Part shown: positions 7,112-64,000 of the stretch, in pieces | Layout of the letters: each line of letters opens with the position of its first letter | Position numbering within the stretch: the first letter of the stretch is position 1 | NCBI GenBank assembly: GCA_964016885.1 | Contig: OZ024744.1 | Span: 45,570,001 to 45,634,000, forward strand | Direction of reading: 5' to 3' | Origin: Eledone cirrhosa | Lineage: Eukaryota | DNA length: 64,000 nucleotides | Position numbers and translations under genes: made by a program | Notes under the pieces: model-generated | Told to the model about the DNA's origin: nothing | The model's input: only the letters and a program-made list of their open reading frames with translations | The model's database searches: none

Positions 7112-8832
7112 TCATCATCATCATCACCGTTTTACATCCGTTCTTCCACACTAGCATGGGTTAGAAGGGGTGTCCTATTGTGGGCAGTGTCCAGTTGGCT
7201 GACTTTGTCTTGCTCATACAGGAACTGATTTTGGCTTGATTTCTACAGTTGGATGCCCTTCCTAACACCAACCTCATTTACAGTGAGTGCTGGGTGCTTT
7301 TTTCCATGGTGCCTACATGTGCACTTGACAGTGTGGGCTGGGTGCTTTTTTGCTGTGGCACCTCCACGACCACTTTGCAGTGGGGGATGGGAGGCAGGGG
7401 ATATTGTCTATATGCTTTTGCTTCGGCTTGTACCTGTGGGGGGGTCGGGTCTTTTGTATTACTGCGTGACACCAGAGGCCACGGTCTTGTGTCATCGCAT
7501 TTGAGAGATTTAATTGGGTAAGGTCGGCTTTTATCACCTCATCCAAGGTCTTCTTGGGTTTCGCCACTCCGCGGTTTCCATCAACTTCTAGTGCTCTGCA
7601 CCTTTTTATGCAGCTGTCCTCCTTCATACGCATCACATGTCCATACCAATACAACCGCCTCTCCTGCACACAGCATTTGATTCCTCTTATGCTCAGTCTC
7701 TCTCTCAATTCATTTATGCTTTTCCGTTCGCGTATATTACTATTTCACATCCATCGGAGCATGCAGGCTTCGTTTCTTTCTAATCTACGTAAGTCTTCTA
7801 CAGACAGCGCCCAGGTTTCACTTCCATGTAACATTGCTGTTCGGATACACGCATCATACAGTCTGCCTTTCATTTTGAGTGAAATGCCTTTTGCAGCTAG
7901 CAGTGGCAGTAGCTCCCTGAAATTCTTCCATCCTGTTCTTACCCTAGTTATTGTACTTTCCGAACACCCACCTCTGCTGCTAATTCGGTCACCTAGGTAG
8001 CATAAGATGTCTACTGTTTCTACAGAGCCCTCCCAGAGTTTGGTGGTGCTTGTTTCCTGTGGTCGTTCACTGCTTGCTGTCCCAGCACAGCTGCTACATA
8101 TGAAGCCTACATTCTTAGTTAAACTTCCTGAGATCCCACTACATCATTTGTGTACCAATTGTTTGCATTTGGGGCAGAGGATGAAGTTCCTACCTACACC
8201 TTTCCTACATACAAGGCCATTTCCCTGAGGGTATCTGAGTTGTGTTTTCTCGTCTACTTACAAGAACCTTAGTCTTTGTCAGGTTGACTCTGAGGCCCCT
8301 CCTTTCTAGTCCCTGCATCCATGTTTGGAATTTCTTCTTTAGTTCCACCATGGATTCAGCTATAAGTACGAGATCATCCACATACCGGAGTTCCCATGGG
8401 CATCTGGTCTTAAACTCCTCCTGTATGCTAAATTCCTCGCTATAGTCATTGCTAACTCTAACTTTGCTGACTGCTCCTCTATACATGGCTTGTACAGCTT
8501 TCACAAGCCATTCATCTACTCCTAGTTTTCTAAGAACCCACCAGACTATAGCACGGGGGACTCTGTCGAAGGCTTTTTCCAGATCGACGAATGCCAGTTA
8601 AAGCAGCTTACTTTTAGCTAGGTACTTTTCCTCTAACTGCCTCACAAGGAAGAGAGCATCAGTGGTGCCTTTTCCTGGTACAAACCCAAATTGCATCTCA
8701 TCTAGTTTCACCCGGTCCCTAATCAACTGTGCTATAACTCTTTCCGTTATTTTCATGACCTGGTCCATAAGCTTTATACCTCTATAGTTTCCTCTATCTA
8801 GTGCATCGTCTTTACCTTTGTAGCAGTTGACA
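7112..8832 (-). mobile_element. 5'-truncated decayed RTE LINE with long 3' UTR
   Basis: Minus-strand RT remnants ([29 protein letters not shown]) and catcatcat tail at ~7112-7126. Confidence 0.92.
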
Positions 8833-8899
8833 TATATACATCGAGCCCTCTTTGGATTTTAGTCTTCAAATTTATTATTATTACTATATATATATATAT

Positions 8900-9840
8900 G
8901 TGAGCTGATAGAGTACAGTCTAAGGATTTACAGAAACCCAAGAAGCTAGATTTAACACCTTTGTAGTGGGTCCGGGTATTATTTTACATTCATTTAAATT
9001 ATTGATGTATTGTTTTATTGATATTTTTTATCTGATTGTCCCGAATCTTCTATTATCGATTTTTTATCGTATGGTTGATTTTAGACTTGTTCTATGTGTG
9101 ATGGTATTTTAACGATAGTTATAGCTCTGATTCATCTGAATTATTGAGCCCTCTGCCGCTCATTTCGAATATTGTTTATCGTGAACTCGTGCGCCGATTT
9201 TTCGATACTCGATCTTTCTAATATTTTTAGCTCTGGACATAGCTATCCACCAGTTAATTTTATTGCTCATTTTTTGTCGATTCTATTGAGTGATGAATAG
9301 CTCCTGTTTTATTTTAACATGTCTATTGAGCACTCTTATTCGATATGTGTATTTCCACATTTCCTCGAATAGTTTTCGCGGATGTAGAGGTTATCTCCCT
9401 TGCCGGATTCCATGTGCGTATTTCACTTGTAGTTAGCCTCTTATCCGCTAGGAAAAAGCTCGTTGATGAAGTAAACTTCCATTCCGCTTGCTCTAGAAGT
9501 CTTATATATTTATATGTGAGCTGATAGAGTACAGTCTAAGGATTTACAGAAACCCAAGAAGCTAGATTTAACACCTTTCTAGTGGGTCCGGGTATGATTT
9601 TACATTCATTTAAATTATTGATGTATTGTTTTATTGATATTTTTTATCTGATTGTCCCGAATCTTCTATTATCGATTTTTTATCGTATGGTTGATTTTAG
9701 ACTTGTTCTATGTGTGACGGTATTTTAACGATAGTTATAGCTCTGATTCATCTGAATTATTGAGCCCTCTGCCGCTCATTTCGAATATTGTTTATCGTGA
9801 ACTCGTGCGCCGATTTTTCGATACTCGATCTTTCTAATAT
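8900..9840. repeat. 616-bp unit in ~1.5 tandem copies within (TA)n; unclassified, possibly PLE terminal-repeat derived
   Basis: gtgagctgatagagtacag at 8900 and 9516; second copy near-identical to ~9840; flanked by TA runs. Confidence 0.8.
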
Positions 9841-10252
9841 ATATATATATATATAGTAATAATAATAAATATATGTATATAATAATAAATATATGTATAT
9901 AATAATAATAAATATATGTATACATTCATATATATATATATATATATGAATGTATACATAAAAACAAATAACGAAACAAAATTAAATTTCGTTTCGTTTG
10001 TAACTCACTTTTGTATGACTGACGCTTAAACAATTAAGTTAAAAATGTACATCCATATATGTATACTGAAATACTAGTATGCATATGAATACACACACGT
10101 ATACATATGTAGATGTACCAAGTCTTTCACTGGTTACTTTACTGTGAGTATCCAGCTATTCTGTATGTAAACACACAGACAAACCGGTTTTTAGAGTCAT
10201 ACTGGTTTTTGAGGAAACACCTTTCCTCTATTCTCCAGAAAGCCAGACAAGG

Positions 10253-10297
10253 AATATTGAACTAGTTTCGTTGTTGTTACAACTCATCAGCAATATT
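10253..10297 (-). ncRNA. Minimal type I hammerhead ribozyme
   Basis: Exact reverse complement of 10776-10820. Confidence 0.82.
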
Positions 10298-10775
10298 TAC
10301 CTATCTACCGGCCTTTCTGGAGAATCGTAAAAGCACATAGCTTTTGAGGAAATTCCTTGTCTGGCTTTCTGGGGAATAGAGGAAAGGTGTTTCCTCAAAA
10401 ACCAGTATGACTCTAAAAACCGGTTTGTCTGTGTGTTTACATACAGAATAGCTGGATACTCACAGTAAAGTAACCAGTGAAAGACTTGGTACATCTACAT
10501 ATGTATACGTGTGTGTATTCATATGCATACTAGTATTTCAGTATACATATATGGATGTACATTTTTAACTTAATTGTTTAAGCGTCAGTCATACAAAAGT
10601 GAGTTATAAACGAAACGAAATTTAATTTTGTTTCGTTATTTGTTTTTATCGTCTCCGTTGAACCGGTACGTACTCACACTCTATGCAAATTAGTCTGCCC
10701 ACTACTAATTTTCATAGAAAAAGCATATAACGATATGTGCTTTTACGATTCTCCAGAAAGGCCGGTAGATAGGTA

Positions 10776-10820
10776 AATATTGCTGATGAGTTGTAACAAC
10801 AACGAAACTAGTTCAATATT
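10776..10820 (+). ncRNA. Minimal type I hammerhead ribozyme
   Basis: AATATTG-CTGATGA-GTTGT(aaca)ACAAC-GAAA-CTAG-TT-CAATATT: 7-bp stem I, canonical core, 5-bp stem II, palindromic stem III (AACTAGTT), GUU cleavage triplet. Confidence 0.85.
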
Positions 10821-11046
10821 CCTTGTCTGGCTTTCTGGAGAATAGAGGAAAGGTGTTTCCTCAAAAACCAGTATGACTCTAAAAACCGGTTTGTCTGTGT
10901 GTTTACATACAGAATAGCTGGATACTCACAGTAAAGTAACCAGTGAAAGACTTGGTACATCTACATATGTATACGTGTGTGTATTCATATGCATACTAGT
11001 ATTTCAGTATACATATATGGATGTACATTTTTAACTTAATTGTTTA

Positions 11047-13560
11047 ATGTATACATATATATATGTATACATATACATATATATACATATATATATGTAT
11101 ACATATACATATATATACATATATATATGTATACATATACATATATATACATATGTATACATATATATATGTATACATATACATATATATACATATAAAT
11201 CCCTCCCCCATGAAGAATGCACCTCCCAACATAGACTGATAATTAGCGACCTCATAGTCAGGACGAGACGTACTCGACAACAGAAGAGGACTATCCTCAG
11301 GAGGAAAATATGGAAGCTAAAGGACCCCACAGCCAGGAATAAATTTCAAAGCATATTACTTGATGCTTTCGACAGTAAGGAAGAACATTTAGAGTCGGAC
11401 AATATAGAGGGAGAGTGGGAATTTCTGAAAGCAAACCTGCTGTTGGCGACAGACGAGGTCTGTGGCTGGAGCAGGCCTGTAGGCAGGAGGAGAGTAACAT
11501 GGTGGTGGAACAGTAAGGTGGAGGGGTCAATTAAGGCCAAAAAGCAGGCTTGGAAAGTATGGCGGGATGGGGGAAGTAGAGAGGACTATCAAGTGGCCAG
11601 GAGGGAAGCTAGGAGACAAGTGTACTTAGCAAGAAGGGAAGCTGAGGAAAGAAAGTTCAAGCATGTTCTACAACGCGATGACCAAAAACGTGAGGTGTTC
11701 AGGATTGCTAGGCAATGCGTCAAGGAAAACCGTGATATTGTCGGGGAGAAGTGTGTACTAAACGACGATGGCACACTTGCCATCACCGACGCTGATAAGA
11801 AGGTAGCTTGGAAGTGTCACTATGAAAGGCTTCTAAATAAGGAGAATAATTGGGAGAAAGGCAGTCTCCCTCATATCGACCCAATAGAGGGACCAGCTGT
11901 GTTAGTCGAGGGGAGTATAATAAGTAAGGCAATCAAGGATATGAAGACTGGTAAGGCGGCTGGGCCTTCGGAAATAGTTGCTGAGATGCTGAAGGCATCT
12001 GGCACGGTGGGACACACCATGGTCACCCGCATAGTTAACCAAGTCGTACAAAACGGGGTTGTTCCGAAGGACTGGCATAGCAGCATCATCGTTAACTGTT
12101 ATAAGGGTAAAGGAGACGCCCTAGATAGGAGTAACTATAGAGGCATTAAATTAATCGACCAGGTCATGAAGGTCACGGAAAGAGTAATAGCGCAACTAAT
12201 CAGAGAGAGAATTGACCTAGATGAAATGCAGTTCGGGTTTGTGTCAGGCAAAAGTACCACAGACGCTCTTTTCATAGTACGACAACTACAAGAGAAGTAC
12301 CTAGCTAAAGGTAAACCCCTCTACTTAGCTTTTGTCGACTTGGAGAAAGCCTTCGACAGAGTCCCCCGCTCCATTATCTGGTGGGCTCTTAGAAAACTAG
12401 GCGTTGACGAATGGCTTGTGAGGGCTATACAAGCCATGTATAAAGAAACAGTCAGCAAGGTTAGAATTAACAACGAATATAGTGAAGAGTTTAGCGTAAA
12501 AGTCGGCGTCCATCAGGGCTCTGTTCTCAGTCCACTACTATTTATTATTGCCCTTCAGGCCATAACAGAGGAGTTCAAGACAGGCTGCCCATGGGAACTC
12601 CTATACGCAGACGACCTGACACTCATAGCGGAATCAATGGCCGAGCTAGAGAAGAAATTCCAAACATGGAAGCACGGCCTAGAGTCAAAAGGACTTAAAA
12701 TTAACCTGGCTAAGACCAAAGTACTAGTTTGTAGGAAAGAAAACAAGGCGGCGGTCCCTTCTGGGAAATGGTCGTGCTCGGTGTGTAGGAAAGGCGTAGG
12801 TAGAAACTCCATTTTATGTCCTAAATGCAAAGTATGGGTGCATAAAAGATGTAGTGGGATCACAGGTAGGCTAACTAAGAACATAGATTTTACATGTGGC
12901 CGGTGCTCTGGTGCAATAAGTAGCAGCAAGTGCCCACAAACTACTAGCTCTTTCAATTGCGCAGAGGGTTCTATAGAAATAGTGGACAGCTTCCGTTACC
13001 TGGGCGATAAAATCAGCAGTGGGGGAGGGTGCTCTGAAAGTACTGTAGCTAGAGTCAGAACTGGTTGGAAAAAGTTCAGAGAGCTTATACCACTATTAGC
13101 TGCTAAAGGGTTCTCACTAAAAATGAAAGGCAGGTTGTACGATGCCTGCATACGAACAGCAATGCTGCATGGCAGTGAGACCTGGGCATTGTGTGCAGAG
13201 GATATACGCAGACTAGAGAGGAACGAAGCTTGCATGCTCCGCTGGATGTGTAACAGTAATATACGTGAACGGCAAAGCATAAACGAACTAAGGAATAAAT
13301 TAGAGATAAGAGGGATCAGATGTTGTTTACTCGAGAGAAGGCTACGTTGGTATGGACACGTGATGCGCATGAAAGTCGATAGCTGTATAACAAAGTGCAG
13401 GGCAATAAAGATAGACGGTAGTCACGGAATAGGCAGACCTAGAAAAACCTGGGACGAGCTGATAAACTCCGACATCACACACTTACACCTCTCCAAGACA
13501 ATGTCACTGGACCGAGACCTTTGGCGGTACTCAGTAACAGAGAAGACCCGCCTTACCTAA
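11047..13560 (+). CDS. RTE LINE reverse transcriptase ORF (5'-truncated; first ~50 codons are fused microsatellite)
   Basis: 837-aa uninterrupted ORF with the APE C-terminal end (SQHRLII), [64 protein letters not shown]. Confidence 0.9.
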
Positions 13561-16212: not shown

Positions 16213-17780
16213 TCAAGGCGGTTGATTTCTCATAGGAGTGTCAATCCAGTTACAGATCAGATGAGGACAGCATCTGAAGATCTCAGTCTTTGAGTTAAGG
16301 CAAGCGGAAGTGGCTCTCAAGTTTAGCAAAATCCTATACTTTTCTGTGGTACACAAAGAACAATTCTTTGTGCCCCTTTGGTACTCCCTCGAATGGTCTA
16401 ATATAGACCAATCAATAGAGTACGGGATGTTACTATCCTTGAGATCCCATACCTTACTTGCGAGGGCCGTTGATGTTCGTTTATCGGAGTGCTTAAAAGA
16501 AGCGACATGTGAGTAAAATCTGGTTTTAAACCTGTCCTGGGTCATACCGACATATCGCTCACTCCTGGCTGGCTGGTTGTTGATTACTGGCGTTATCTTA
16601 GCCTCATAAACGACAGATTTTGTGTTACATTTACCCTGCAATGGGCATTCATCCGGCTTACTGCAACTGCATCCTGGATTTATCCTCGTACGGTATGAAC
16701 TGGTGATTTTGGACTTCATAGATGGGCAACAACAGTAGCTGATCTTAACTACATTCCTATTAAATATCTTATAATATCTATGAATAGGAGGAAAATGTTT
16801 GTCTAATAGTTCAAGGAATTTCCTTCCTACATTAGTTTTGACAGTTAGAGAGAAGGGGGGTGTGAACCAAATAATCTTCCTTTTCCTGTTATTATGGTTA
16901 GTTTTAGGGGGGGGGGGGGGGAGTAGGTAAATAAGAATTTTTTTCTGTAAAACCGCTGTTCTTAAGGGCTTTATTATAATAAGAGGCGGCTTTATTAAAA
17001 ATGTCTATAGACGAAGATAAGGTAGAAATCCTACGGCTAATGTTAGGAATAAGATTATTAAAAACTATAGGGGGGATGGCAAGACTCTTTGTGTATATAC
17101 CTAAGATTTTCATTAGGTTTATGATAGGGTTTAAAAGAGGCAGTAAGTAGATCAAGATTAATATCAAGAAAGTTAGCATTAGTAAGGTTCGTATCTATAG
17201 TAATTTTAAGGTTAAGATTAGCAAAAGTATTGATTAAATCTTTACGGAATTTATCAAGATTATGCCCGTTGGTGGTATGAGAAACTGCTAATCCGTCATC
17301 ACGGTATAAACCGATATTATGGGACGGAAATTTCTCTTTGAGTGTGTGGAGAAGGAATAATCCTACTAAGTCACACACATCCGCACTGTCATGAACCCAT
17401 TGCAACATCAAAAGAGTTTTCAGGGTTTGACTTTTTAACCCAAATATTATCATTAGTAAAAAGTAAAGTTTTTCTAGCATGAAAGATAATGTCCTCTTCT
17501 AATTTAGAGATATTAATGAAGGGTCTTGCAAAATCTAAGGCATTAGTTAATAAGGAAACAGTAATAGAAGGGTAAAAATCGACAATATCAAATTGGGTAA
17601 ATCTACACTTATTTTTACCTTGTATATTATTGAACCAAGAAATAACAGAGGAAGTATTTAGCCACTGTGATAGGTCAGTGTTAGTTCTAATTTGGAGAAT
17701 TATTTTTCTTAAGATTTTCTTACTAGCAAGGCCAACCTCGGATTTAGCCGGGTTAATCAGTCTACAACTAGGTCGATTAT
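16213..17780 (-). mobile_element. Decayed Penelope-like element (RT + GIY-YIG), Naiad-like
   Basis: QFDIVDFYPSI, GLYRDDGL, NFLDINLDL, IIWFTPPFS, CSCSKPDECPLQGKC, VVYEAKI...YVGMTQDRFKTRFYSH, CSLCTTEK; frameshifted. Confidence 0.9.
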
Positions 17781-22220: not shown

Positions 22221-22299
22221 GAATTCAATAGGGTTAAGCAGCGGTACTGTACAAGGAGGAGTGATACATCAGCAGAGCTAAGTAATAGGTTTATAGTGG

Positions 22300-23390
22300 T
22301 AAAATGAATTAAGTTTAATGTGAAAACAAGATGAGAAAATCTCAGATTTCCTATTCAGTAATTCGCAGTTAGAGTAAACTATGGCATGAGACTCAAGCAG
22401 GCAGAGGTTACAAGTTTTGATCGGGGGCGGTAGGGTGTCGATTTAGTTACCAACCTCCAATTGAGTGTATAATCTATACCATCATATTTTAAAGAGTGAA
22501 TATATTTAGCTAAGGAAGGTAGCATTTTTAAGCCTATCATATCTAAAAGTATAATTGTGGGAGTTAAATCTACTTTTAAAAGCTGTAGAGGTAGAACCCA
22601 CATATGTCTTAGTTGAAGTTGTTGTTACAACATCACATGCATAAACAATATTCCTCATAAGGCAATTGCCTTTTAAAGGGCAATTTCCACTCCTTCTATA
22701 ATTACAACTACGGTATGTGTCGTTATTCATACCTTGGGATGGCCTATTGTTCAAACCCATTTGACTTGTAATGTGTTCAACAGATGTGATGTCACCGATC
22801 TGCGGTACCGCACTAGCCAATGTTTTAGGTTGCTGTTGGTTACTCACAGTTTTAATATTTTCAAAACCTACACTAATTTTCTGATTATTAGTACGTGCCA
22901 AGTGGTAAGCTAGGTTTGGTGTAGTGGAGTACGATAATTTAATTGTGTTTTTATTGAATATACAATGGTATCTGCTACCCGGCGGGAAGTTGTTTTCTAG
23001 GATTAAGAAGAATGTTTTTGGTATATTAGTTAAGACCTCAGAGTTATATGGTGGGATAAAAAGGTGTTCATTCTTCTATTTTTTCTATTTTTCCCCACTA
23101 CAGTCCGGTTCACACCAGGGCTACTACTCTCCCCTACGCATACAGAACTAAGTCCACCATAAATTGGTGGTGAAATTCTTCCATTACATAGGTCAATATG
23201 TCTATCTAATACTCTACTATGAGTGTGTTTTCCAAATCTTACAGCACTTCCATTAGTGTAACCATTAGAAGTATTTGGAGGATGCATATTAAAGCCATTC
23301 AGTCTAGGCTAGGCTGAGCTAATCACAACATTTGTCCTATCTGAGCAGAGTCCGCAGATCCCATTGTGATATCAAACTTGTTAGTGTTAT
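22300..23390 (-). mobile_element. Internally deleted Penelope-like element relic
   Basis: FDITMGSADSAQI (RT) and SCNYRRSGNCPLKGNCLMRNIVYACDV...TYVGSTSTAFKSRFNSH (GIY-YIG). Confidence 0.8.
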
Positions 23391-56169: not shown

Positions 56170-59100
56170 AAAACGGAAAAAATGAAACGAAATTTAATTT
56201 CCCACTCTTAGTACGGCTGGTACTTAAATATAAGTATGTACACGTACATACATATATGTATACAGACGTACAGTAGTATGTATATATATATACATACATG
56301 CACACATATATATATGTACGTATGGATTCACCGAACATTTATTATAATGCTCGGTGTGTTTGTAAACAAACATCCCGTATTAAGCTGTAGTGTCCAGCAA
56401 CCATCGTTGCTCGTTTGTTCAACACGTGTACATACTTATATTTAAGTAACAGTCGTACAAAGAGTGGTAAATGAAATTTCGTTTCATTTATACCGTTTAT
56501 CGTTTTCGGTGCATCCGACCGATTAACCCACTCGATATGCAAATTGGGTTACTCAGACGTTAATATGCATAAGGTAAGTATATACGTTCAACAATCTGGC
56601 AGGAAGGTATACGTTGCTGACGATAGCTAATAAGTTTGAAACGAGTACTGCGTTACTTTGTCAGTGTTGAACAAACGAACAACGATGGTTTCTGGACACT
56701 ACAGCTTAATACGGGATGTTTGTTTACAAACACACCGAGCATTATAATAAATGTTGGGTGAATCCATACGTACGTATATATATGTGTGCATGTATGTATA
56801 TATATATATATACATACCACTGTACGTCTGTATACATATATGTATGTACGCGTACATACATATTTAAGTAACAGCCGTACTAAGAGTGGGAAATGAAATT
56901 TCGTTTCATTTTTTCCGTTTATAGTTTTCGGTGCACACGGTCAATTAACCCACTCGATACGCAAATATGGGCTACTCAGCCGTTAATATGCATAAGGTAA
57001 GTATATACGTTCAACAATCTGGCAGGAAGGTATACGTTGCTGACGATAGCTAATAAGTTTGAAACTAGTACAGCGTTCCTTTGTCAGTGTTGAACAAATG
57101 ATGCAACGATGGTTCCTGGACACTACGGCTTAATACGGGATGTTTGTTTACAAACACACCGAGCATTATAATAAATGTTCGGTGAATCCATACGTACATA
57201 TATATATGTGTGCATGTATGTATATACATATATACATACTACTGTACGTCTATATACATATATGTATGTACGCGTACATACGTATATTTAAGTAACAGCC
57301 GTACTAAGAGTGGGAAATGAAATTTCGTTTCATTTTTTCCGTTTATCGTTTTCGGTGCACCCGGCCGATTAACCCACTCGATATGCAAATTGGGTTACTC
57401 AGCCGTTAATATGCATGAGGTACGTATATAAGTTCAACTATCTGGCAGGAAGGTTTAGGTTGCTGACGATAGCTAATAAGCTTGAAACTAATACAGCGTT
57501 CCTTTGTCAGTGTTGAACAAACGAGCAAAGATGGATGCTGGACACTACGACTTAATACGGGATGTTTGTTTACAAACACAATGAGCATTATAATAAATGT
57601 TCGGTGAATCCATACGTACATATATATATATATATATGTGTGCATGTATGTATATATATATACATACTACTGTACATCTGTCTACATATAAGTATGTACG
57701 TGTACATACTTATATTTAAGTAACAGCCGTACTAAGAGTGGGAAATGAAATTTCGTTTCATTTTTTTCCGTTTATCGTTTTCGGTGCACCCGGCCGATTA
57801 ACCCACTCGATATGCAAATTGGGCTACTCAGCCGTTACTATGCATAAGGTAAGTATATACGTTCAACAATCTGGCAGGAAGGTATACGTTGCTGACGATA
57901 GCTAATAAGCTTGAAACTAGTACAGCGTTTCTTTGTCAGTGATGAACAAACGAGCAACGATAGTTGTTGGACACTACGGCTTAATACGGGATGTTTGTTT
58001 ACAAACACACCGAGCATTATAATATATGTTCGGTGAATCCATACGTACATATATATATATATGTGTGTGCATGTATGTATATATATATACATACTACTGT
58101 ACGTCTGTATACATATATGTATGTACGTGTACATACTTCTATTTAAGTGACAGCCGTACTAAGAGTGGGAAATGAAAATTCGTCTTATTTTTTCCGTTTC
58201 TCGTTTTCGTTGCACCCGGCCGATTAACCCACTCGATATGCAAATTGGGCTACTCAGCCGTTACTATGCATAAGGTAAGTATATAAGTTCAACAATCTGG
58301 CATGAAGGTATACGTTGCTGACGATAGCTAATAAGCTTGAAACTAGTACAGCGTTTCTTTGTCAGTGTTGAACAAGCGCGCAACGATGCTTGCTGGACAC
58401 TACGGCTTAATACGGGATGTTTGTTTACAAACACACCGAGCATTATAATAAATGTTCGGTGAATCCATACGTACATATATATATGTGTGCATGTATGTAT
58501 ATATATATACATACTACTGTACGTCTGTATACTTATATGTATGTACGTGTACATACTTATATTTAAGTAAGAGCCGTACTAAGAGTGGGAAATGAAATTT
58601 CGTTTCATTTTTTCAGTTTATCGTTTTCGGTGCACCCGGCCGATTAACCCATTCTATATGCAAATTGGGCTACTCAGCCGTTACTATGCATAAGGTAAGT
58701 ATATACGTTCAACAATCTGGCAGGATGGTATACGTTGCTGACGATAGCTAATAAGCTTGAAACTAGTACAGCGTTTCTTTGTTAGTGATGAACAAACGAG
58801 CAACGATGGTTGCTAGACACTACGGCTTAATACGGGATGTTTGTTTACAAACACACCGAGCATTATTATAAATGTTCGTTGAATCCATACGTACATATAT
58901 ATATATGTGTGTGCATTTATGTATATATATATACATACTACTGTACGGCTGTATACATATATGTATGTACGTGTACATTCTTATATTTAAGTAACAGCGG
59001 TACTAAGAGTTTGAAATGAAATTTCGTTTCATTTTTTCCGTTTATCGTTTTCGGTGCACCCGGCCGATTAACCCACTCGATATGCAAATTGGGCTACTCA

Positions 59101-62100
59101 GCCGTTACTATGCATAAGGTAAGTATATACGTTCAACAATTTAGCAGGAAGGTATACGTTGCTGACGATAACTAATAAGCTTGAAACTAGTAAAGCGTTC
59201 CTTTATCAGTGTTGAACAAACGAGCAACGATGGTTTCTGTACACTACGGCTTAATACGGGATGTTTGTTTAAAAACACACCGAACATTATAATAAATGTT
59301 CGGTGAATCCGTACCGACATATATATATATGTGTGTGCATGTATGTATATATATATACATACTATTGTACATCTGTATACATATATGTATGTACGCGTAC
59401 ATTCTTATTTTTAAGTAACAGCGGTACTAAGAGTTTGAAATGAAATTTCGTTTCATTTTGTCCGTTTATCGTTTTCGGTGCACCCGGCCGATTAACCCAC
59501 TCGATATGCAAATTGGGCTACTCAGCCGTTACTATGCATAAGGTAAGTATATAAGTTCAACAATCTGGCAGGAAGGTTACGTTGCTGACGATAGCTAATA
59601 AGCTTGAAACTAGTACAGCGTTCCTTTGTCAGTGTTGAACAAATGATGCAACGATGGTTACTGGATACTACGGCTTAATGCGGGATGTTTGTTTACAAAC
59701 ACACCGAGCATTATAATAAATGTTCGGTGAATCCATACGTACATATATATATGTGTGCATGTATGTATATATATATATACATACTACTGTACGTCTGTAT
59801 ACTTATATGTATGTACGTGTACATACTTATATTTAAGTAACAGCTGTACTAAGAGGGCAAACGAAATTTCGTTTCATTTTTTCTGTTTCTCATTTTCGTT
59901 GCACCCGGCCGATTAACCCACTCGATATGCAAATATGTGCTACTCAACCGTTAATATACATAAGGTAAGTATATACTTATTCAATCTGGCAGGAAGGTAT
60001 ACGTTGCTGACGATAGCTAATAAGCTTGAAACTAGTACAGCGTTCCATTGTCAGTGTTGAACAAACGAGCAACGATGGTTGCTGGACACTACGGCTTAAT
60101 ACGGGATGTTTGTTTACTAACACACCGAACATTATAATAAATATTCGGTGAATCCATACGTATATATATATATATGTGTGCATGTATGTATATATATATA
60201 CATACTACTGTACGTCTGTATCCATATATGTATGTACGTGTACATTCTTATATTTAAGTAACAGCCGTACTAAGAGTTTGAAATGAAATTTCGTTTCATT
60301 TTTTCCGTTTATGGTTTTCGGTGCACCCTGCCGATTAACCCACTCGATATGCAAATTACTATGCATAAGGTAAGTATATAAGTTCAACAATCTGGCAGGA
60401 AGGTATACGTTGCTGACGATAGCTAATAAGCTTGAAACTAGTACAGCGTTTCTTTGTCAGTGATGAACAAACGAGCAACGATAGTTGTTGGACACTACGG
60501 CTTAATACGGGATGTTTGTTTACAAACACACCGAGCATTATAATATATGTTCGGTGAATCCATACGTACATATATATATATGTGTGTGCATGTATGTATA
60601 TATATTTACATAATACTGTACGTCTGTATACATACATGTATGTACGCGTACATACGTATATATAAGTAACAGCCGTACTAAGAGTGGGAAATGAAATTTC
60701 GTTTCATTTTTTCCGTTTATCGTTTTCGGTGCACCCGGCCGATTAACCCACTCGATATGCAAATTGGGTTACTCAGCCGTTAATATGCATGAGGTAAGTA
60801 TATAAGTTCAACAATCTGGCAGGAAGGTATACGTTGCTGACGATAGCTAATAAGCTTGAAACTAGTACAGCGTTCCTTTGTCAGTGTTGAACAAACGAGC
60901 AAAGATGGATGCTGGACACTACGTCTTATACGGGATGTTTGTTTACAAACACAATGAGCATTATAGTAAATGTTCGGTGAATCCATACGTACATATATAT
61001 ATATATGGGTGCATGTATGTATATATATATACATACTACTGCACGTCTGTATACATATATGTATGTACGTGTACATACTTATATTTAAGTACCAGCCGTA
61101 CTAAGAGTGGTAAATGAAATTTCGTTTCATTTTTTTCCTTTATCGTTTTCGGTGCACCCGGCCGATTAAACCACTCGATATGCAAATTGGGTAACTCAGC
61201 CCTTAATATGCATAAGGTAAGTATATACGTTCAACAATTTAGCAGGAAGGTATACGTTGCTGACGATAACTAATAAGCTTGAAACTAGTAAAGCGTTCCT
61301 TTATCAGTGTTGAACAAACGAGCAACGATGGTTTCTGTACACTACGGCTTAATACGGGATGTTTGTTTACAAACACACCGAACATTATAATAAATGTTCG
61401 GTGAATCCGTACCGACATATATATATATGTGTGTACATGTATGTATATATATATACATACTACTGTACATCTGTATACATATATGTATGTACGCGTACAT
61501 ACTTATTTTTAAGTAACAGCCGTACTAAGAGTGAGAAATGAAATTTCGTTTCATTTTTTCCGTTTATCGTTTTCGGTGCACCCAGTCGATTAACCGACTC
61601 GATATGCAAATTGGGCTACTCAGCCGTTAATATGAATAAGGTAAGTATATACGTTCAACAATCTGGCAGGAAGGTTACGTTGCTGACGATAGCTAATATG
61701 CTTGAAACTAGTACAGCGTTCCTTTGTCAGTGTTGAACAAATGATGCAACGATGGTTACTGGATACTACGGCTTAATAGGGGATGTTTGTTTACAAACAC
61801 ACCGAGCATTATAATAAATGTTCGGTGAATCCATACGTACATATATATATGTGTGCATGTATGAATATATATATACATACTACAGTACGTCTGTATACTT
61901 ATATGTATGTACGTGTACATACTTATATTTAAGTAACAGCTGTACTAAGAGGGAAATAAAATTTCGTTTCATTTTTTCCGTTTATCGTTTTCGGTGCACC
62001 CGGCCGATTAACCCACTCGATATGCAAATTGGGCTACTCAGCCGTTACTATGCATAAGGTAATTATATAAGTTCAACAATCTGGCAGGAAGGTATACGTT

Positions 62101-64000
62101 GCTGACGATAGCTAATAAGCTTGAAACTAGTACAGCGTTCCTTTGTCAGTGTTGAACAAATGATGCAACGATGGTTGTTGGATACTACGTCTTAATACGG
62201 GATGTTTGTTTACAAACACACCGAGCATGATAATAAATGTTCGGTGAATCCATACGTACATATATATATGTGTGCATGTATGTATATATATATACATACT
62301 ACTGTACGTCTGTATACTTATATGTATGTACGTGTACATACTTATATTTAAGTAACAGCCGTACTAAGAGTGGTAAATGAAATTTCTTTCATTTTTTTCC
62401 TTTATCGTTTTCGGTGCACCCGGCCGATTAACCCACTCGATACGCAAATATGGGCTACTCAGCCGTTACTATGCATAAGGTAAGTATATACGTTCAACAA
62501 TCTGGCAGAACGGTATTCGTTGCTGACGATAGCTAATAAGCTTGAAACTAGTACAGCGTTTCTTTGTCAGTGATGAACAAACGAGCAACGATAGTTGTTG
62601 GACACTACGGCTTAATACGGGATGTTTGTTTACAAACACACCGAGCATTATAATATATGTTCGGTGAATCCATACGTACATATATATATATGTGCATGTA
62701 TGTATATATATATAAATACTACTGTACGTCTGTTTACATATATGTATGTACGCGTACATACTTATATTTAAGTAACAGCCGTACTAAGAGTGAGAAATAA
62801 AATTTCGTTTCATTTTTTCCGTTTATCGATTTCGGTGCACCCGGCCGATTAACCCACTCGATATGCAAATTGGGCTACTCAGCTGTTAATATGCATAAGG
62901 TAAGTATATAAGTTCAACAATCTGGCAGGAAGGTATACGTTGCTGACGATAGCTAATAAGTTTGAAACTAGTACAGCGTTCCTTTGTCAGTGTTGAACAA
63001 ATGATGCAACGATGGTTCCTGGACACTACGGCTTAATACGGGATGTTTGTTTACAAACACACCGAGCATTATAATAATGTTCGGTAAATCCATACGTACA
63101 TATATATATGTGTGCATGTACGTATATACATATATACATACTACTGTACGTCTATATACATATATGTATGTACGCGTACATACGTATATTTAAGTAACAG
63201 CCGTACTAAGAGTGGGAAATGGAATTTCGTTTCATTTTTTCCGTTTATCGTTTTCGGTGCACCCGGCCGATTAACCCACTCGATATGCAAATTGGGTTAC
63301 TCAGCCGTTAATATGCATGTGGTAAGTATATACGTTCAACAATCTGGCAGGAAGGTATACGTTGCTGACGATAGCTAATAAGCTTGAAACTAGTACAGCG
63401 TTCCTTTGTTAGTGTTGAACAAATGATGCAACGATGGTTACTGGATACTACGGCTTAATACGGGATGTTTGTTTACAAACACACCGAGCATTATAATAAA
63501 TGTTCGGTGAATCCATACGTACATATATATATGTGTGCATGTATGTATATATATATACATACTACTGTACGTCTGTATACTTATATGTATGTACGTGTAC
63601 ATACTTATATTTAAGTAACAGCTGTACTAAGAGGGCAAATGAAATTTCGTTTCATTTTTTCTGTTTCTCATTTTCGTTGCACCCGGCCGATTAACCCACT
63701 TGATATGCAAATATGTGCTACTCAACCGTTAATATACATAAGGTAAGTATATACGTTCAACAATCTGGCAGGAAGGTATACGTTGCTGACGATAGCTAAT
63801 AAGCTTGAAACTAATACAGCGTTCCTTTGTCAGTGTTGAACAAACGAGCAACGATAGTTGCTGGACACTACGGCTTAATACGGGATGTTTGTTTACTAAC
63901 ACACCGAGAATTATAATAGATGTTCGGTGAATCCATACGTATATATATATATATGTGCATGTATGTATATATATATACATACTACTGTACGTCTGTATCC
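56170..64000 (+). repeat. ~423-bp tandem array (18 hammerhead-bearing units, continuing past the window end) preceded by an inverted partial unit (56170-56425)
   Basis: CTGACGA core at 56617, 57040, 57463, 57892, 58318, 58738, 59162, 59585, 60007, 60413, 60837, 61260, 61683, 62102, 62523, 62943, 63365, 63786. Confidence 0.97.
57886..57928 (+). ncRNA. Minimal type I hammerhead ribozyme (representative; one per array unit)
   Basis: ACGTTG-CTGACGA-t-AGCT(aata)AGCT-t-GAAA-CTAG-TA-CAGCGT: stem I 6 bp and extendable, canonical core, palindromic stem III (ACTAGT), GUA triplet. Confidence 0.82.

Follow-up and report, generated by a model that had tools for sequence, protein, structure and literature searches.

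Animal retrozymes accumulate as RNA circles, and their proposed helpers are Penelope-like elements (PLEs; PMC7229834); the enzyme and the RNA that move them are stated to be open questions (PMC7229834; Li et al. 2026, bioRxiv 10.64898/2026.07.22.740005; these and the papers below are cited from the available parts of their text). In those parts, both reports propose that PLEs mobilise the elements, on the grounds of co-occurrence and of pLTR similarity; head-to-head insertions and fixed ends are absent. A purified PLE, modelled as a dimer, cuts and extends both strands in vitro, with two internal start sites bounding the tail, and this activity does not need ribozyme cleavage (PMC11167929).

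Here we describe a repeat from Eledone cirrhosa that, judged by its sequence, belongs with the non-LTR retrozymes and that appears to work like a non-autonomous PLE. The window, that is, the whole stretch of DNA analysed, comprises 64,000 nucleotides (contig OZ024744.1, positions 45,570,001 to 45,634,000) of a 3.0 Gb assembly, and its positions 9958-11046 are occupied by a young, protein-free, hammerhead-bearing copy of a 466-bp repeat, inserted head-to-head. Like the non-LTR retrozymes of animals, the element forms protein-free tandems of low GC content, ranging from dimers to large arrays, co-occurs with PLEs and carries a canonical type I hammerhead with a weak, palindromic helix III (PMC7229834; Li et al. 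2026), although units of 423-466 nt here exceed the 170-400 nt given for invertebrate non-LTR retrozymes. With EN+ PLEs, as described in the available text of three papers (PMC8557442, PMC3846280, PMC11167929), it shares 5'-truncated partial tandems, an inverted 5' copy, a one-ended tail, a pair of internal start sites, targets that are AT-rich or (TA)n, and microhomology joints. Unlike these elements, it has no ORF, its tail measures 51-69 nt rather than the published 30-40 nt, the distances from the cut site to its start sites are 233 and 302 nt, and the one-tail rule is nearly strict, whereas the accounts of EN+ PLEs have it as 'often' or 'optional'. In L1 twin priming, two target-primed cDNAs are joined by microhomology to give a 5' inversion; one primer sits at the poly(A) end and the other at an internal site that varies, and there is hardly any overlap between the arms. 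In contrast, both sites of the present element are fixed and internal, and its arms overlap by hundreds of bases.

The element class and the one-ended tail are already published, and the class itself is ordinary; what is mechanistically useful is the insertion signature. Our literature search, which covered papers outside subscription, returned no description of a head-to-head two-site signature in retrozymes, nor of a counted one-of-each rule. A PLE insertion signature in thousands of young retrozyme copies is more direct than co-occurrence, and a near-strict rule of one end of each kind constrains how PLEs build their inverted ends, which the available text of PMC8557442 states as an open point. 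Moreover, a 466-nt RNA with mapped start sites and long open PLE frames in the same genome make an in vitro test straightforward.

Anatomy of the insertion and its hammerhead

The repeat has a period of 466 bp (10352-10581 recurs at 10818-11047), and we number the unit from the base just after the predicted hammerhead cut (position 1 = 10814). The head-to-head layout, which is absent from the original prediction, consists of two arms. On the minus strand, the inverted arm spans 9958-10339 (382 nt; unit positions 387-466, then 1-302); its outer 3' end falls at a site termed B, directly after GTTTTTAT, and it includes the tail. The sense arm runs on the plus strand from 10352 to 11046 (695 nt or 1.49 units; unit positions 5-466, then 1-233) and its outer 3' end falls at a second site, A, directly after TTAATTGTTTA, without the tail. 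On the plus strand, at 10581-10649, the 69-nt tail reaches from site A (after 10580) to site B (after 10649) and contains a hairpin at 10609-10637. At the head-to-head joint, 12 nt of filler (10340-10351) separate the arms; 10 of these (10342-10351) copy 10207-10216, a templated insertion that we take to be of the type made by microhomology-mediated end joining. The insertion lies in a TA-rich tract, with (TA)n-rich target flanks at 9837-9959 on the left and 11047-11197 on the right. Positions 9949-9959 recur at 11046-11056, a weak candidate target-site duplication that overlaps the element ends. Flank repeats of 12 nt containing G/C were present in 4 of 73 insertions, one or two of them partly element-derived, as compared to 75 of 5256 controls, and most flanks were pure TA.

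The element has a GC content below 45% and no ORF, and is built of short tandem units that each bear a type I hammerhead. No reading frame for a reverse transcriptase and GIY-YIG protein was found in the unit, and tblastn with two PLE proteins matched the window only outside the unit. Recent dispersed copies were found as full-length matches of 97-100% identity on many chromosomes, with up to ~50 units at other loci. In a comparison of four contig runs the 466-bp element was present, one run, which may be the source sample, also showing a loose TA end at 10649. The octamer ATGCAAAT (10683-10690, plus strand) is kept in the 466 and 423 families and is a possible internal promoter element; a link to the snRNA-type promoter of newt satellite 2 was looked for in the literature and not found. 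A transcript across 9958-11046 would fold into ~300 bp of near-perfect double-stranded RNA, and thousands of such head-to-head loci could supply small-RNA or editing pathways.

The plus-strand type I hammerhead (10748-10843) has its core at 10783-10789 and 10804-10807 and a long extended helix I. Matched to the pattern of a CUGANGA...GAAA core and a NUH triplet, it reads CTGATGA (from 10783), GAAA and GUU, with GAAACTAGT at 10804-10812. Helix II comprises 5 bp (GTTGT/ACAAC, 10790-10803), and helix III is a 2-bp palindrome (ACTAGT) in the hammerheads of both arms. The extended helix I is present as originally predicted, with AATATTG/CAATATT in its proximal part and a distal helix pairing ATTCTCCAGAAAG (10748-10760) with CTTTCTGGAGAAT (10831-10843). 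The predicted cut, GUU^C, falls between 10813 and 10814. Folding of 10745-10850 gave z = -4.85. The Rfam model Hammerhead_HH9 matched this hammerhead and that of the inverted arm (minus strand, core at 10290) with E 5.8e-8 and 38.6 bits against a gathering score of 52, and no Rfam family reached its gathering threshold in the insertion; matches to Rfam miRNA families were rejected as hairpin and TA artefacts. The cleavage triplet is GUU here, GUC in 466 subfamilies, which also differ by one helix II change (U-A to A-U), and GUA in the 423 family. GUU, carried by the young subfamily, is a weak cleavage triplet, which counts against the reading of the element given below. The triplet GUU does not occur in the available part of PMC1636495, and self-cleavage was reported for one of nine predicted elements by Li et al. 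(2026). The predicted 466 hammerhead would likely cleave itself as a dimer through the palindromic helix III, a mode of action described for a hammerhead in PMC4209133. With one hammerhead per strand, the window copy could not release a monomer in cis.

Two families are related to the 466-bp repeat. A 423-bp hammerhead array occupies 56171-64000 on the plus strand and runs past the window; its inverted 5' arm of 255 nt (56171-56425) terminates at the homologous site B, and the array extends over ~63 kb, from window position 56171 to G000:C28:45,689,470 (ends located, interior partly read). A duplicate of the left end of the array, inverted arm included, lies ~276 kb upstream (L250). The third family (L252-L281) has a non-coding 434-bp unit with helix II CAGCT/AGCTA and a GUU triplet; it was found by a pattern for hammerheads with the same helix III, which gave 1566 matches, most of those listed belonging to this family. 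Tail lengths are 69, 56 and 51 nt in the 466, 423 and 434 families, respectively. The proposal that the 466- and 423-bp units share their layout and sequence blocks is borne out, as the two are colinear and their alignment extends outside the core: shuffled sequences aligned as well in 0/200 cases for the whole unit, in 0/500 for the tail-plus-downstream region and in 7/500 for the weaker post-cleavage region. Helix II, predicted as GTTGT/ACAAC versus AGCT/AGCT, does pair in both families, but AGCT/AGCT accounts for pairs 2-5 only; pair 1 is G-C in the 466 unit and U.U in the 423 family, the latter resembling the axolotl HHR_Amex2 in its available description. The original prediction that structure is conserved over sequence also held, since two-sided, compensatory changes affect 6 of 15 core pairs among 11 representative sequences, with helix I and helix II contributing three each. 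None of 500 shuffles reached the observed covariation score and slid controls were 27-53% paired, a result that is neither a probability nor phylogeny-aware, the 11 sequences representing about four lineages. In the RNAalifold consensus, 10 of 25 pairs showed two-sided changes across few independent lineages.

Fixed 3' ends and the one-of-each rule

The fixed boundaries of the element are its 3' ends, at sites A and B, 69 nt apart and in (TA)n. Exact junctions counted genome-wide amounted to 2114 for B followed by TA and 599 for two variants of A followed by TA, with none for reversed-pattern controls. We analysed two sets of loci unselected for length: the first 78 of the 2114 exact B-end matches, reduced to 77 by removal of one duplicate (set 1), and 22 additional loci taken from among the first 100 of the 243 matches that an internal pattern gave (set 2). 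Duplicate or overlapping loci (L010, L014, L021-L023, L064, L066, L119, L177) were removed before counting, loci of full-length matches were kept out of the statistics because they had been chosen for length, and arms below 85% identity were ignored. In set 2, 37 of 39 3' ends coincided with A (224-233) or B (294-302); (TA)3 lay within 12 nt of 36 of these 37. Among the 77 consecutive B ends of set 1, the partner was an A end in 53 cases (43 long A arms, 9 short A stubs, and L201 with a long A arm plus a short B arm) and a B end in none; 8 were unresolved and 16 single. A and B being of roughly the same frequency, a B partner would be expected in about one case out of two if the ends were chosen independently. 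The pairs of set 2 comprised 14 AB and one AA; AA pairs do exist, at L094 and L149 (the latter picked separately from set 2). For the 423 family, the two sites were predicted from the alignment and then found at u220 and u276, one of each in seven clear two-armed loci, and the 434 family has A and B sites with the same behaviour. The 423 array of the window was further predicted to have A at its far end; this failed, as the array stops at unit position 401.

An inverted, 5'-truncated copy together with a one-ended tail, by which PLE-type insertions are recognised, is present in insertions of the 466 family. With a probability of about 0.72, we consider the repeat to be a non-coding hammerhead tandem repeat, or non-LTR retrozyme, that is inserted head-to-head with two fixed ends; a Penelope-like reverse transcriptase/GIY-YIG enzyme that targets (TA)n is likely to carry out the insertion in trans. 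This enzyme, which is probably dimeric, would nick both target strands, and the two cDNAs, starting from opposite strands, would be primed at the sites flanking the tail hairpin, the first at B and the second at A. Both cDNAs would copy the RNA backwards for variable lengths until their 3' ends are joined by microhomology, each then templating the second strand of the other. The role of the hammerhead would come before this step: as a dimer within tandem transcripts, it would release monomers for circularisation, without setting the insertion boundary. What counts against assigning A to one strand and B to the other is that the in vitro start sites of a PLE were alike on both strands, no strand difference being seen in the available text of PMC11167929.

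Template, joints and 5' ends

Arms running through the cut site mean that the template usually spans an intact or re-ligated junction, and thus would be either a circle closed by re-ligation or a multimer left uncleaved. At L133, L164, L165, L175, L179 and L207, arms of 5-6 units show 0-1 internal variant, and their distance from the nearest array elsewhere in the sample is 2-5 nt per unit. Because multi-unit arms are internally identical, a monomer circle is favoured in many cases, probably with one RNA serving both arms. The two arms of an insertion usually come from one subfamily. Both arms had an allele in common that was absent from every other sampled arm in 10 of 65 insertions; in 37 of 65, one of the arms was nearer to some other locus than to its partner, a comparison made against the best of ~150 arms, many of them from one young subfamily. 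Skipped in the shared-allele comparison were L005, L025, L145 and pieces of a large array on C1, and gene conversion could be an alternative source of shared alleles. This large array (G000:C1:95,942,340-95,966,310; L091, L092, L123, L124) is likewise head-to-head, with ends B and A, and its B arm of ~50 units shows a 7-unit higher-order repeat indicative of later expansion. Heterogeneous or higher-order-repeat arrays (L123, L132, L134) imply that later expansion also shapes arrays. On balance, the evidence leans towards one circular monomer as the template, without proving it.

A fuller version of this reading, which we advance tentatively and hold to be possible rather than probable, is that a dimer of the Penelope-like enzyme holds a single retrozyme RNA circle, straddling its tail hairpin, and that two reverse transcriptases, one per nicked strand, travel in tandem on the circle, pass the re-ligated ribozyme site and yield products that prime each other. 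If true, this would be genomic proof that animal retrozyme circles serve as PLE templates, would explain the PLE tail and the inverted repeat in one step, and would need no sequence kinship to the helper element.

The same two-site priming might instead operate without circles, on long uncleaved multimers transcribed from genomic arrays or on two separate RNAs, in which case homogeneous arms would reflect young source arrays. Suitable large arrays exist (~50 units, C1:95.94-95.97 Mb), unprocessed RNA is the main in vitro substrate in the available text of PMC11167929, and variant patterns of period 2 and period 4 occur in L132 and L134. However, large arrays are heterogeneous, with 6-8 differences between units (L123, L124) that copying of multimers should transmit, whereas several multi-unit arms, though internally identical, are set apart by fixed differences from every other array sampled, and we regard this alternative as unlikely. 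More improbable still is an inverted arm that arose by fold-back self-priming, as proposed for Penelope (PMC3846280, available text), or by later DNA rearrangement, rather than by a second target-primed event. Of 67 joints, 45 had an overlap of at least 1 nt, 5 were blunt and 17 contained filler, as determined by BLAST or exact extension, which may inflate overlaps. A minority are symmetric and lie in palindromes (L132, L138, L140, L165, L181, L206), which favours this alternative, but most joints connect different unit positions, either arm may be the longer one, and both outer ends fall at fixed, (TA)n-flanked sites in four element families.

The 5' ends, in contrast to the fixed 3' ends, are spread over the whole unit, largely without regard to the cut. 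According to the original prediction, the plus-strand copy begins at 10352, 4 nt past the predicted cut, which is correct (unit position 5), and its cDNA came from a ribozyme-cleaved RNA. As a general rule, a 5' boundary set by cleaved RNA is already refuted: none of 152 5' ends lies at the cut, 122 of 155 arms cross it, and of 221 passes that reach unit position 1, 217 go on to position 450 (the 50-unit array L091/L092 was excluded from the 5'-end test). In the window copy, the cut junction is intact in both arms. Ends within -4 to +6 of the cut numbered 7 of 152 against 3.1-3.7 expected, a roughly twofold excess with p 0.03-0.08, uncorrected, over 5 windows and 2 null models. An account in which the reverse transcriptase stops on reaching the 5' terminus of a linear RNA cleaved by the hammerhead, so that the cut site sets the 5' boundary, is the least probable and a very remote one. 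In its favour, mapped arms include three ending at position 5, two at 4 and one at 2, and end joining could remove a few bases; against it, no end lies at position 1 itself, and the strong hairpin at positions 1-30 could also stall the enzyme there. Most simply, the start of the window arm at position 5 is an ordinary truncation; a small minority of 5' ends may derive from cleaved RNA, the window copy potentially among them.

Penelope-like elements as candidate helpers

An abundant autonomous PLE of Hydra type (L241-L247) is a candidate for the mobiliser of the retrozyme. It has two ends ~92 nt apart and a (TA)n target, and 11 of 11 pairs with both ends visible were AB. A first look gave 64,117 candidates, with open frames of 710-726 aa; the motifs (RWR, DKT, CxCx5C, no CCHH) fit the Hydra description in the available text of PMC8557442, and the clade is assigned by these motifs alone, not by a tree. 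A Pfam search with a 713-aa protein of this PLE returned no match. In place of CUGANGA, almost every copy read has CAGAAGA in its hammerhead-like motif. The PLE thus resembles the 466 element in its (TA)n target, its two 3' ends and its AB pairs, but differs in sequence and in its ~92-nt tail. Compared with the 466 unit, its A-B region was no closer than chance (131/1000 and 547/1000 shuffles as good), and BLAST with its UTR revealed no significant similarity. No autonomous element with sequence in common with the unit, which would represent a pLTR parent, was found, one of the PLE families seen having been examined in depth, and no ORF was linked to the 434 family in 23 loci examined (30 fetched). 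A degenerate B-end pattern, used likewise to look for a helper, matched just 26 times, at what look like 423-type ends.

The surroundings of the insertion hold further sequences of this kind. A tail fragment of the Hydra-type PLE, with a site B end, lies at 8839-8885, so that the TA tract has received at least three PLE-type insertions. In the same tract, 8900-9856 holds ~1.5 tandem copies of a 616-bp repeat (329/341 identical) that opens with a hammerhead-like CTGATAGA...GAAAC and is probably another PLE-type end. Decayed PLE frames at 16261-17778, 18698, 22287-23060 and 24167 are 35-54% identical to the Hydra-type protein and come with two oppositely oriented hammerhead-like cores. At another locus, an unrelated head-to-head hammerhead insertion (L150:4590-5340) with two different ends and the ATGCAAAT octamer adjoins a 676-aa PLE-type reading frame (L150:6601-8628). 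Directly to the right of the window insertion, 11203-13557 contains a 785-aa open frame with an RVT_1 domain and a PHD-like finger, LINE-like and, as we assume, of RTE type; inverted copies related to this frame lie at 7446-8831.
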